This document shows positions 1,561-6,865 of a DNA stretch of 64,000 nucleotides, in pieces; positions within the stretch are counted from its first letter, which is position 1, and each line of letters opens with the position of its first letter. The notes below the pieces were generated by a model that was not told the origin of the DNA, ran no database searches, and saw nothing but the letters and a program-made list of their open reading frames with translations. This stretch comes from Leucoraja ocellata (taxonomy: Eukaryota), in assembly GCA_036785375.1 (NCBI GenBank), contig JAWMAR010000612.1:1-64000 (forward strand), written 5' to 3'. A program made the position numbers and the translations under genes.

Positions 1561-2479
1561 AAGGAGGTAGTTGGCTTGATAAATGACCTAAACTTACCCA
1601 CGCAACAGTCACGACTATATGGTGCCAATTGCTGTGCGTGCAAAACTGTTTGGGAGGTTTCCCAAGAAATGTTACCGTAAGTCAAGTCCTTTCAGAGTAG
1701 GACACAAATGGAACTAAAACAAGGCACACAGCAATGAAACAGAAATGTGTTTCAATAGAAAAGTATATCACAGTGTAACAGAGTTTTATTGGCATTAAAA
1801 CTTCACTGGCATCAAACATGTATTTACATTGTTGGCAACAACATTTTACTGGCACCAAAACTTAATTGCCTGTAAAAGAAGGTAATTGAAAAGCTAAAAA
1901 ATGTAACCAATTTTCCAGTGTTTAGAAGATTCCAATAAAAATGGGATAACATCAGGTTCCATCTAATATCATACCAGATGCCATAAATTACTTGTCAAGG
2001 CAGAGCCAGAAAGAAAGTAATTTATGTGGAAAACCATCCCAAGTGGTTTCGCAGAAGTGTATGCAAAAAAAAAGACATCGATAAAGGAGATCCTTTACCC
2101 ATTGTTCTGTCATTGAGAAATAGATGCTAGACTCCAGTCTGTATGGTGAACCTGCTGTTTTGGATATCATCATATAAAAGAAGTATTTCTGATGGGCAGA
2201 TAAATGTAAGAAACAATCTCCTATATACGATTTTGGAAAACCATCAAGGATGCCAATAGGAAATTCTGGACCAATCCCGAGTCCTTGGACAACCATGCAT
2301 TGATGGTGACGAAGTGTACATGCTTAATGGGTTACAAATTGAAGTGGAGCGGTATATCGCAGGCAACAATGTGTTCCATGTCTCACCCTGATGAGTTCTG
2401 CATTCTATGCTTGCTTTGAACAGAAGGTCAGTGGAATGACGTTATCTACCCCGACAGCCTCAGCTGCAAAGTATACCAA

Positions 2480-3220
2480 CAGTTGGTGTCGCAGATGTCA
2501 GATCGGCCTACCTGGGAGTGAACTCAGTCAGCAATTGGCCCAGATGGAATTCCCTGCTGTATCGCCAAAACCTATGCTGAGCAGCTGGCAGGAGTTTACA
2601 CTGGCATCTTTAATCTCACCATGCTCTATTCTGAATTTCCCACCTGCTTTATGAAGTAACATCCTGGTGCCAAAGAAAAGCAAGGTAGAATGCCTTAATG
2701 ATTACCGTGGCTCTGACATCCACCATCATGAAGTGCATCAAGGTCATATAATAAGCCCTACCAGATATCCTTGATCCATTGCAGTTTGCCTAGTGGAACA
2801 GGTTCATACAGATGGCATCTACCTGGCACCCACACTCATTGCTGGAACATCTGGATAATAAGGAAGAAACGTCGCCCTTCCTTCTCTCCAGAGATGCTAC
2901 CTCACCCGCTGAGTTACTCCAGCATTTTGTGTCTAGCTTGCGTAAGATTATTGATTGATATAGCTTCACCTTCATCACCATAATTCCAATCAAACTCATC
3001 TCCAAACTTTTGGACCTAGGGGTCATCCCCCTCTGCATTCCTCAATCTGACCCGCAGACCACAATCGGTGAGGAAATACAACAAAACATCCTCCATGATA
3101 ATTCCCAACCCTAGTGCCCGCAAGGATGCATTCTCAGTCTCATGCAATATTCCATTTACACTCATAACTATGTGGCTGATTTCTGCAAATATCACCAGCA
3201 TATTCTTTTGAATTGCAGAT
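2480..3220 (+). mobile_element. Rex1/Babar LINE RT fragment, interrupted by a Penelope-type piece at ~2870-2937
   Basis: Encodes GPDGIP..KT.AEQLAGV...IFNL, PKK.KV.CLNDY, LLIDYS..F.TIIP.KL and ends at K(F)AD. Confidence 0.8.
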
Positions 3221-4207
3221 GTCGGCTACTGCTCGTGAGGAGGAGTGGAGTCTGTGGCAACAGCATGATGGACAGCGGGCGAGTCTCGGCTTCTGGACAA
3301 AGACATTGCCTGATCTCCCCCGCCGCGCGATATTCACCCTTTGAACGACAGTTATTTGCATGTTACTTGGCACTTCTTGCTACCGAACACCTTATGGCGG
3401 GTGGGATAGTGGTTATGCGCCCTCTCTTACCTATTATTACCTGGGTTAAGTCCGCCAATATCTCCCATAAGGAGGAACACGCACAGCTCTCCTCTATTGT
3501 AAAATGGAAATGGTACATCTCTGATAGGGCTGAGAGAGGCCCTGACAGTGTTAGCCGTCTGCATGAGGAGGTCATGGCTCCACCTTTGTCCGATGATAAT
3601 ACTCCAGTCCAACTATACACCGAATCCTGGGCAGTTGCCAACGGTATGGCTGTGTGGATGACACAGTGTCAGTCCCAGGGGTGGGGAATACATGGTCTGC
3701 ACCAGCTAATGACCGTGTATGGCACCACATGGGAGATTCAGTCTGAAAACAGGTCCCACTTCACCGGTCACAAAGTATAACAGTGGGCAGTTGATGATGA
3801 GGTGCAGTGAACCCTCCACATCTCGTATTACCCGCAAGCAGCAGGGCTGGTGGAGCGTATGAATGGTCTACTTAAAAAGCAGATATGTACACTAACCTCC
3901 TCCCATACACTCAAGGGGTGGGCCCTAGTGTTGCAGCAAGCAGTAAACAACTTGAACCAACGGCCTTTGGCAGGGTGAAACACCCATGAGCCGACACCTG
4001 GCTGTTGCAATCGAGCCAGATGACGCCACACCGACGAAAGAACATCAGGAAGACGCCCGGAAGCTGTGAGTTTCGTTCCCCGTTGGGGGACTCCCTCGCA
4101 AGGGGGAAGTTATTGCTGCAGCACAGGGCAATACGCAGTGGCTTTTGGTGACCGGGGAGGATAAACCTAGATGTCTACCTTTACAGCACTTAACCAGGCG
4201 AGAGTAA
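3220..4207 (+). pseudogene. pol: Class III (ERV-L/ERV-S-like) endogenous retrovirus pol remnant (connection, RNase H, integrase) with internal deletions
   Basis: WSLWQ..LGFWTK.LP, YSPFERQLFACYLAL..TEHL, MRP.LPI..WV, AQ.SSIVKWKWYI.DRA..GP, LHEEV, LYTESWAVANG, PQAAGLVERMNGLLK, GW..VLQQAV..LNQRP, EV.A..QGNTQW; these match HERV-L Pol blocks as I recall them. Confidence 0.88.
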
Positions 4208-4238
4208 GCCAGCTCCGTCTTCTCTTTACAGAACAATC

Positions 4239-4620
4239 ATGAGGCACATCATGTGTATCGGACGATGGCATGGGCTGATACTTCTGGCAGTGCTGGCTGC
4301 CGCATCACTTGTCTGCACGGAATCAAACGCCTATCTCTCGCTCCTGCATGCGTACCTACGTAAACTGAGTTTGTGCACATGTCCCACATCACAGACAACA
4401 GGACCACTCTCAGGCTAGTAGTTGCAGGGCAGGCTATCCAAGCCCTGAGTGCTGAAATGGTGGCAATACGAACTGATCTTGGGAGTTTGGAGCTTGTGGG
4501 CATATGCCATGGCTGGTGACTGGGCTTGTTTTGGTGGTGGCATAATATTCTGGAATTGTGTGCTTCCTTACTGCCGTGTGAGGAGTGCCAAGAGAGTGAA
4601 GGGATGGTATTGAGCCTGTG
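4239..4620 (+). pseudogene. env: Retroviral env remnant (signal peptide, SU start, TM heptad and hydrophobic anchor fragments)
   Basis: Acceptor tcttctctttacag (AG 4230-4231), ATG 4239, MRHIMCIGRWHGLILLAVLAAASLVCTESNAYLSLL; in another frame AGQAIQALSAEMVAIRT, then a hydrophobic WLVTGLVLVVA stretch. Confidence 0.6.
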
Positions 4621-4651
4621 GGCCGAATGTAATGGGATTTGGGGTGTATGT

Positions 4652-5539
4652 TGTTACGGTGAAATTGTGTTCAAAACACAACTTTGCATGCTTGGGCTGA
4701 TTAAAAGGGGCCAGTAAATCATGGGGATGCTTGCAAGGCCATTGAGATAATATTTGCTTTCACAGAGACATCTGAAACTAGCTCAGTGTCTGATAGAACA
4801 CATAACTCATGCCTTTATGGCATGGATAGGTAGTTTGACATAATCTCACATTCATAGAGATATAATAATTATACTTTACTTGTGATTATTATTGTTTGTA
4901 TAATCATTAACATGTAGTTAGATGGACGCTAATGTAGACGGATGACTCCAAGAGTTGGAGTGCAGTGTGAGGGTTGAACTAACAATTTCAGCTAAAATGT
5001 GAAATGGAGTTATCAGCCTAATTAGCAGCCATACATCCCACGGTCTACGAAAACAAGTTTATCTCCTCGCACCTGCGATCAGTGCATGGGAAAGGCTGCG
5101 TTGGCGAACAAAACACAGCAATGTTTGAGTAGATGTTCCCAAACAATGTCTAGTTGAGCTGAGCAAAACAACAGCAATAGTTGGGTAGATCACCTGTGCC
5201 CCCTGCCGCAAGTAGCGCAGAAACGTTGCAGACAAGGGGGGCTTATGATTGGGTCGGGGAGGGGGCAGTGGCGCGGTCTGCTCTGATAAGAAATGCCATA
5301 AAGATTGGTGTTGGGTGCCCTTTTGGGGAGAGAACCTCAGCCTTGGACTGTGTCGCGAACAGTGCCAGGTGATCTTGAACGAAACATCCCGTGGCGTGCT
5401 TTGCTGTGTACTCGGGGTTTGCGAGTGTGTTCAGGGATATTCGGGGATACGCGAGTGTATGTGCCTTATTTAGGAGTGTAATAAAATACTGAGTGAAACA
5501 AAATTGTTATCTGAATCCAGTGATTTATCAAACGCAACG
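4652..5539 (+). mobile_element. Putative 3' LTR of the ERV
   Basis: Preceded by a G-rich PPT-like gggatttggggtg; starts TGTTACG and ends CGCAACG (imperfect inverted ends); AATAAA at 5480-5485. Confidence 0.6.
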
Positions 5540-5769
5540 TGTGTCAGGGAGGACCAGTGTGATGGATTGATATGACATTGGTTAGGCAAAGCGTATTGGA
5601 TTGTGGAGAGTCCAATTGGCAAAGGAATAAAAGAGTCCTGTAAGTGGTTACAAGACTAAACCCCCAAATTGTTGTTTCATAGTCCAGCTGAGACTTGAGA
5701 AATACTGTGATCTCAAGAAGATCTGACTTTTTAAATATTAGTTTACATGATTTGAATGTAGCCGACAAG

Positions 5770-6865
5770 GTTAGCATTTATAGTCCAACCCTAATTGCCG
5801 TTCAGGAGGTGGTATTGAGCCATCTTCTTTGACTGCTGCAGTCTTCCTAGTAAATGTACACTTGTAGTGCGGGTGGGGAGAACGTTTCGGGATATCGATA
5901 CAGTGATGCTTTCCCCAATTAATCTTAATAACTTCTACAGATGCACTGTAGAAAACATCCTATTGGGTGCTTCCCAACTTGTTTTAGCAAATGCTCTGCC
6001 CAAGACCGCAAGAAACTGCAGAGAGTTGTCAAGAGTGTTTTATTGTCACATGTCCCAGATAGTACAATGAAATGAGAAAAAAAATCAATGTATACACATA
6101 ACAAACAAACAATAATAGTGTGTGTTGTTCAGAGCTTATGAGGTTGTAGTGTTTAATAGCCCAATGGCTGTAGGGAAGAAGCTGTTCCTGAACCTGGACG
6201 TTACAGTTTTCAGGTTCCTGTACCTTCTTCCAGATGGCAGGGGTGAAATGAGTGTGTGGCCAGGGTGGTGTGAGGGTCTTTGATGATGCAGTCCAGTTGA
6301 TTTCGCAAACCAGTCTCCCCTACATTGACTCCATCTATACTTGATGCTGCCTGGGCAAAGTGGCCAACATAATCAAGGACTTCAGTCATTTCCTCTTCTC
6401 CCTTTGTTTGTCCAGCAGAGAATACAAAATCTTAAAAGCAAGTACCATCAGATTCAGGAACAGCTTCTTCCCCACTGTTATCAGACTATCACCAACCTCT
6501 CATAAGCTTGCCCCGAGCTCTCAACTTATCTAATTGCAACCCTTGCACCTTTTCTTTTGTCTGCATTCTCACTGTAGCTGTGGCTATATTCTACACTCTG
6601 GTTATTATCCTCTTCGGACTACTTGTAACCAAAGATCTTAGAGCAGAGCTCTAAGATCTTTGCTTGTAACTGTACAGATTGATTGTACTCCATGTAATGT
6701 TTTGACTGGATAGCACACAAACTGGGTTTTTCCACTGTGTCTTGGTTTACATGACAATAATAATCCAATACCAAGATTAATGATGAAGGAATGGTAATAT
6801 GTTTCCAAGTCAGAATTATGTACGACTTGGAGTGGATCCTGCATGTTGCAGTGTTTTCCGGTACT
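5770..6865 (-). mobile_element. Old CR1-group 3' fragment (5770-5905 plus 6780-6865) split by Rex1 insertions
   Basis: gcatttatagtccaaccctaattgcc...gagccatcttc resumes at tgaaggaatggtaatatgtttccaagtcag. Confidence 0.5.
5906..6775 (+). mobile_element. Rex1/Babar 3' portion containing a nested antisense Rex1 3' end (~6028-6290)
   Basis: NFYRCTVENIL, QDRKKLQRV, RFRNSFFPTVIRL; 3' UTR ttttccactgt..tacatgacaataa. Confidence 0.8.

Follow-up and report, generated by a model that had tools for sequence, protein, structure and literature searches.

Organisation of the locus

The window, which is the whole 64,000-nucleotide stretch of Leucoraja ocellata DNA analysed here, carries on its forward strand the dead 3' part of a class III endogenous retrovirus (ERV; 3197..5539), composed of a pol remnant, an env remnant, a polypurine tract and a long terminal repeat (LTR), and this copy would now be inert. 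The first-pass annotation had placed the start of the feature at 3220 and had missed the env, the polypurine tract and the LTR; homology to the sister copies of the ERV begins at about 3197-3205 and the element runs on to 5539.

The pol remnant consists of the RT tether/connection region with one frameshift near 3315-3330 (3197..3590, forward strand), a short middle piece of RNase H (3591..3696, forward) flanked by deletion 1 (about 3580-3590) on one side and by deletion 2 (about 3693-3697) on the other, and the C-terminal half of the integrase core together with the integrase C-terminal domain (3697..4207, forward), with no dUTPase between the two and a stop codon that ends at 4207. The remnant as a whole has two frameshifts and its integrase frame two stops. 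Searches of the window's own frames against Pfam gave a sole match, rve_3 in the integrase part (E 0.0034, below the curated cut-off), and none for env or LINE domains. All the ERV-L-like motifs quoted in the first-pass annotation were found and are colinear, and the tblastn comparison with retroviral Pol that had been proposed there aligned two blocks with P0039, one at 55% identity (103 aa, E 1.4e-30) and the other at 45% (97 aa, E 4.4e-17); P0039 is a protein whose cluster includes Mus musculus and Mus spicilegus members and which, judged by its host, its dUTPase and its domain layout, is probably MuERV-L. Higher identities were obtained with the stingray protein P0001 (56-64%) and with P0004 (62%). 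The best PDB matches of the pol fragment are foamy and delta integrases, which are weak (E about 1e-4) and uninformative for the class, as is the fact that P0001 scores MLV and foamy RT about equally. Relative to P0039, the remnant lacks about 90 aa at one in-frame gap and about 172 aa at another, which together take out most of RNase H, the integrase zinc finger and the first catalytic Asp. The internal deletions in RNase H and integrase had thus been recognised correctly in the earlier annotation, but they are common to unlinked copies and are not a decay private to the window copy.

The env remnant (4239..4613, forward) retains a signal-peptide-like start, the start of the TM heptad and the membrane anchor with its tail. 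Most of SU is missing, as in the sister copies, while a deletion of about 200-220 bp at 4474/4475, which takes out the immunosuppressive domain and CX6C, is present only in the window copy and its duplicate. The env of the sister copy L031 retains an immunosuppressive-domain-like stretch and a CX6C-like motif and matches PF00429 (TLV_coat) with 33.7 bits against a cut-off of 22.5; the window's own env remnant has no Pfam match. The polypurine tract (4948..4960, forward) stands directly before the LTR and is found at the same position, with similar sequence, in L026, L031 and L061. The 3' LTR (4961..5539, forward; 579 bp) begins with TG, has a mutated terminal CA and an AATAAA at 5480, and matches both LTRs of L026 and of L061 as well as many solo LTRs.

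Upstream, and outside the ERV, lies a degraded non-LTR (LINE) reverse-transcriptase fragment (2450..3190, forward), detected by tblastn with open-frame LINE ORF2 pieces of the same genome (E 3e-16), which bear RVT_1 and PF09004 in Pfam. It is interrupted at 2866-2939 by a short, extremely abundant repeat and breaks off just before the FADD motif, where the ERV is fused to it. Neither the window nor the upstream stretch retrieved for its 99% duplicate L027 contains, ahead of the pol remnant, a 5' LTR, gag or RT of the ERV family. The 5' half is therefore absent and what is left is joined directly to a LINE fragment, as had been noted earlier; the name Rex1 given to that fragment is taken here as an assumption. 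Fragments of LINE 3' ends in both orientations are present just past the LTR (5885-6036, forward; 6149-6294, reverse; 6291-6488, forward). Insertion of the ERV into a single LINE, of which the fragment at 5885-6036 would be the other part, was not adopted as 345 bp of other sequence intervenes.

Copies of the element and their shared deletions

At least 59 matches to the pol fragment and at least 56 to the LTR (with 40 of 712 candidates scored) were identified in the same genome. Many of these are near-identical pairs: positions 2000-6794 of the window and L027 (G000:C79) are 99% duplicates, flanks included, and similar pairs on the contigs C312, C52, C435, C394 and C111 suggest uncollapsed haplotypes that inflate the copy counts. 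All the copies seen in the genome are degraded. The recovery of full-length copies, which the first-pass annotation had suggested as a check, yielded elements with two LTRs and near-perfect target-site duplications (TSDs), namely L026 (3.62 kb) and L061 (3.55 kb), both of them internally deleted; L026 has only about 1.1 kb upstream of the point at which the window copy starts.

Twenty-two loci were examined for the pol deletions. Deletion 1 occurs at the window's spacing in five of the eight non-duplicate copies with both anchors mapped and deletion 2 in six of nine non-duplicate copies, and the junctions are base-for-base identical in L026, L008, L034 and L035. Both pol junctions and the shortened env occur together in L006/L061 and in L026, and the short env also in L031. 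As the matches to other copies stop at the LTR boundary, the flanks are unrelated. That unlinked copies, the 3.6-kb elements with two LTRs among them, carry both pol deletions with identical junctions makes a non-autonomous subfamily likely, and the window copy is likely to belong to it. A strict first look at the genome, which sets a lower bound, revealed no helper copy with intact gag-pol.

The same observations could also be explained by independent deletions, arising after insertion at recombination-prone microhomologies in copies of one virus family, with no mobile deleted subfamily. The junction of deletion 2 has a 5-bp overlap, so that recurrent deletion at a microhomology is possible there; several deletion states exist among the copies; and the DNA trees of the copies are star-like, the deleted copies forming no supported clade, although the tests do not reject one (p-AU 0.34 and 0.18). 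Independent origin is nevertheless quite unlikely given that the two pol junctions and the short env co-occur in elements with unrelated flanks, that the pol junctions recur in further copies and that the two-LTR mini-elements carry target duplications of their own.

Features of the family

The RT, gag, primer binding site (PBS) and TSD are missing from the window copy and their states were taken from the sister copies and from ray proteins. A PBS matching the 3' end of the host tRNA-Ser(AGA) at 16-17 of 18 nt, each time 2 nt after the LTR end, was found in 4 of the 24 sequences scanned, two of which (L024 and L025) are duplicates of each other. The primer of HERV-S is likewise Ser, whereas that of ERV-L is tRNA-Leu. 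Exact TSDs of 5 bp flank 4 of 18 LTR loci and four more have one mismatch, whereas no locus has an exact one of 4 or 6 bp; the remaining loci are mostly LTRs still joined to internal sequence or those whose ends were not located. L026, L061 and L062, in which both ends are present, each have a TSD matching at 4 of 5 positions. Although L062 (4955-6741), which is 1.8 kb long, retains no more than about 60 bp of the 5' LTR and 150 bp of the 3' LTR, it has a near-perfect 5-bp TSD.

No dUTPase was matched in the window and 43 loci, nor in any of 28 ray proteins, some of which are partial, while three of six non-ray comparison proteins matched. The HYIDD motif of RT is present in all seven ray proteins checked and the CCHC motif (Cys-His box) in none of the seven, two of which may lack gag. 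The P0001 cluster has 13 members, five of which bear the name 'Friend virus susceptibility protein 1-like', and the gag of P0001 matches the upstream parts of L023, L024, L025, L034 and L037 in tblastn. The TM of env is of the gamma type. The family thus shows LTRs, a tRNA-Ser PBS, ERV-L-type gag and pol, a gamma-type env TM, a 5-bp TSD and no dUTPase. Compared with the feature set of XtERV-S, the Ser PBS and the env type agree and the dUTPase after integrase is absent. Since the family has env, lacks dUTPase and primes on tRNA-Ser, the term 'ERV-S-like' fits it better than ERV-L; the label describes gene content and primer site and not a branch of a tree.

Phylogenetic placement

Pol trees were inferred as a quick tree of 70 rows and a careful tree of 34 rows (LG+G4, no mixture model), in which the row for the window fills 26% of the columns. 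No named HERV-S, XtERV-S, snakehead retrovirus or foamy rows are included in them, and a group consisting of L057 and its kin (hereafter group B) serves as a stand-in for Pol of the snakehead retrovirus (SnRV) type. The window pol falls inside the class III group in both trees. In the careful tree it belongs to a clade of seven rows (support 100/99) made up of rays alone: the window, three copies from its own genome, Hypanus, Hemitrygon and Narcine. This ray clade is one of five branches, joined in a polytomy, of a 25-row clade (95/99) that also holds mouse ERV-L, elements of amphibians, lungfish, bichir and killifish, a single bird row and five unnamed rows; further bird lineages branch deeper. 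The Pol is thus that of class III, the ERV-L/ERV-S group. The earlier assignment to an ERV-L-like class III element stands as far as the class and the close Pol kinship with mammalian ERV-L are concerned, and gives way on ERV-L itself in view of the env, the lack of dUTPase and the Ser primer. Of the groups suggested there for a phylogeny, mouse ERV-L joins the window in the 25-row clade, SnRV is represented through group B, and named HERV-S and spumavirus rows are not part of the trees; to ERV-S the resemblance is one of gene content and primer site.

A true ERV-L, that is, a ray member of the env-less, dUTPase-bearing mammalian lineage and sister to mammalian ERV-L, would agree with the identity of the window Pol to mouse ERV-L (51% over 212 columns), which is the highest outside the rays but barely above that to the amphibian rows (50%), and with the result that a clade of the rays and mouse ERV-L is not rejected (p-AU 0.42, 23-row subset). 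The env, the Ser PBS and the missing dUTPase of the family, together with the five-way polytomy of the careful tree, make it very unlikely. Still less credit is due to an affinity with snakehead retrovirus or foamy viruses, both of which have counterparts reported in the elephant shark. In its favour, cartilaginous fish do harbour such lineages (PMC4422223), foamy and delta integrases head the weak PDB matches, and the tree included no named row of either kind; the window Pol is, however, only 16-26% identical to the stand-in group B, in comparison with its identity to mouse ERV-L, grouping with group B is rejected by the AU test (p 0.002, 23-row subset), and the gamma-type TM and Fv1-like gag also speak against it. 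The same 23-row subset rejects groupings with Gypsy (p 1e-6) and with class I (p 3e-7), so that the Gypsy or epsilon-type affinity named in the first-pass annotation as a refuting outcome did not occur.

Tests on a 22-row subset were directed at the deeper relationships. Placing all the bony-vertebrate class III rows together is rejected (p-AU 0.004), as is placing tetrapods and lungfish together (2e-7), while rays as sister to the inner bony-vertebrate set are not rejected (0.17). The two stingray proteins are not sisters within the ray clade, so the virus tree does not simply follow that of the hosts, and with this departure it does not date the clade.

Authenticity and age of the locus

The junction of the LTR with its flank is bridged by contigs in four of four runs carrying organism labels A-D, with 0, 7, 9 and 19 differences over 436-458 bases, and the junction of the LINE fragment with pol is bridged likewise in four of four runs under these labels, which come from four studies. 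With label A set aside, three other labels from three studies still bridge the junctions. The locus is therefore real and was already truncated before the lineages A-D split. As the junctions are bridged under four organism labels, the sequence is not a contaminant, which was the other refuting outcome considered in the first-pass annotation. There remains a vanishingly small chance of contamination, misassembly or a Gypsy or epsilon-type element, against which stand the matches in its own genome, the bridged junctions and the AU tests. The host was supposed to be an elasmobranch, and this is borne out by a class I ERV of the genome that is 94-96% identical to an Amblyraja radiata protein and by an acetylcholinesterase exon, which scores 968 bits against the 1gqr/1acj group, taken to be from Torpedo, and 783 against the next group. 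These two markers point to a batoid, probably a skate; two further cholinesterase-family exons were uninformative, one having no match at the cut-off and the other matching best an entry named Cholinesterase. One low-depth contig with organism label E matches 3000-3204 and continues with about 100 unlike letters, which is a hint only.

The distances between paired LTRs are 0.061 and 0.148. With the two rates used in PMC4422223 they convert to 14-34 or 139-336 million years, so that we draw no date from them.

Proposed history of the element

Taken together, we hold with good confidence that the stretch 3197-5539 is the 3' part of a class III ERV of a ray-specific, ERV-S-like lineage, and likely a member of a subfamily of internally deleted elements, about 3.6 kb long, for whose copying more complete relatives likely supplied the enzymes in trans. 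A possible course of events can be outlined on the basis of established retrovirology, namely tRNA-primed reverse transcription, priming at the polypurine tract and integrase-made target duplications. A retrovirus would have entered the batoid germ line, and some of its genomes may have shed the greater part of gag, RT, RNase H, integrase and SU during reverse transcription, probably by template switching at short homologies. The deleted genomes would have retained the signals required in cis (LTR, primer site, leader and polypurine tract), and Gag-Pol from a helper could have packaged, reverse-transcribed and integrated them. The window copy would then have lost its 5' end (about 1.1 kb, if L026 is taken as a guide) in a genomic deletion that fused the ERV to the LINE fragment, and a further 200 bp or so of env; both these losses would predate the separation of the lineages labelled A-D.

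Comparison with known elements

Several published elements share a part of the features of the ray family. According to PMC8278194, ERV-L elements are env-less and carry dUTPase, whereas ERV-S elements are associated with env and have no identifiable dUTPase. MuERV-L and HERV-L resemble the ray element in Pol (45-55% identity in the matched blocks), in the HYIDD motif of its ray relatives, in the Fv1-like gag and in their position within the same clade, and differ from it in the lack of env and the presence of dUTPase (PMC8278194). ERV-S and HERV-S share with it class III gag-pol, an associated env and the lack of an identifiable dUTPase (PMC8278194); they are a tetrapod lineage and are likened to it by gene content, with no HERV-S in the tree. 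XtERV-S of Xenopus tropicalis shares the tRNA-Ser PBS, an ERV-L-type gag without a Cys-His box, the YIDD motif of RT and the gamma-type env TM, but it is intact and young and has a dUTPase after integrase (PMC8278194), whereas the ray family has none and all the copies seen in the genome of the window are degraded. The element thus works like, and by gene content resembles, ERV-S and XtERV-S.

The suffix in the name of a further element, ERV-SA.a-Ppe, may presumably be read as the sawfish Pristis pectinata, which is a guess on our part. This element combines class III Pol with a gamma-type Env, was compared with XtERV-S by its authors (bioRxiv 10.1101/2021.11.23.469661), whose screen included six cartilaginous fish, and is termed SnRV-related there; it is known here by its description, the main text of that source not giving the host.

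The deleted subfamily has an analogue in the MaLR elements of mammals, which are non-autonomous. These are gene-poor LTR elements tied to ERV-L with a 5-bp TSD, as opposed to 4 bp for ERV1 (PMC2836564). The ray subfamily retains recognisable scraps of pol and env and arose independently in rays, so the likeness is one of analogy and not of membership.

The premise of the first-pass annotation, that ERV-L and ERV-S-like viruses are best known from tetrapods, is in agreement with PMC4977317, where HERVS/L-like elements are assigned to tetrapods and the elephant shark has only SnRV-like and epsilon-like lineages, after PMC4422223. It contrasts with PMC6001957 (Xu et al. 2018), in which class III lies within a clade Huo present in all the major vertebrate lineages and the cartilaginous-fish retroviruses are stated not to be basal in any clade. 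In S2 Fig of that paper, the label of the whale-shark element Rh_ty_ERV3 stands beside those of No_fu_ERV1, HERVL, Murine_ERVL and HERVS at one end of clade Huo, which is an order of labels and not of branches. Rh_ty_ERV3 is a cartilaginous-fish ERV, from a shark and not a ray, that can be compared with the present element through this label order; the start of its Gag resembles the P0001 Gag by eye, a likeness that was not computed, and the figure-label text and data passages of PMC6001957 describe no env, PBS, TSD or deleted subfamilies for it. A shark relative thus appears to have been published already, the ray element being a new example and not a new kind. The literature searched gave no description of the ray clade, though subscription papers and bioRxiv supplements, which lay outside the search, may hold one; the passages seen of PMC12287698, PMC12690878 and PMC9004415 had nothing specific to it. 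No relatives were found among the viral contigs scanned.

Significance of the ray lineage

A lineage of the ERV-L/ERV-S group is hereby documented in rays, in the skate-type host studied here and in Narcine, Hemitrygon and Hypanus, which we take to span three ray orders. The states of the primer, env, dUTPase and TSD in this lineage help to order the gains and losses of env and dUTPase within class III, and the deleted subfamily would provide a case from fish in which a deleted class III genome spread in trans. The hope that a cartilaginous-fish member would inform the age of the clade, which was expressed in the first-pass annotation, is weakened since the host-like topologies are partly rejected and a whale-shark element already stands, by label order, beside HERV-L and HERV-S in PMC6001957; the element alone does not date the clade, and class III in cartilaginous fish has a precedent. 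It is conceivable but unlikely that an ERV-L/ERV-S lineage has been inherited ever since the jawed vertebrates split and that the ray clade is its branch in cartilaginous fish, in which case the ancestor of mammalian ERV-L would have been env-bearing, Ser-primed and more than 400 million years old, and rays would have evolved a MaLR-like non-autonomous offshoot independently.

Other endogenous retroviruses in rays

At 90% identity, the P0001 cluster (Hemitrygon akajei) holds 13 proteins, including Gag-only members annotated as Fv1-like, and the P0002 cluster (Narcine bancroftii) 14, and the ray clade looks younger in these two genera. The genome of the window also harbours a second degraded class III lineage (L042-L044, L046, L048-L051, L053-L055, L064 and L066), of which L042 sits within the ray clade; related remnants of the env TM are present at several of these loci. 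An RT fragment of class III that is more divergent (L041/L063, G000:C64) forms a long branch of its own. The retroviral Pol of L057 (G000:C37) resembles MLV and foamy RT to about the same degree, groups with coelacanth, Xenopus and unnamed elements and is possibly snakehead-retrovirus-like. Class I ERV families (L058-L060 and others), among them the one close to the Amblyraja radiata protein, have many near-identical copies and long open pol frames, which suggests that they were recently active in skates.
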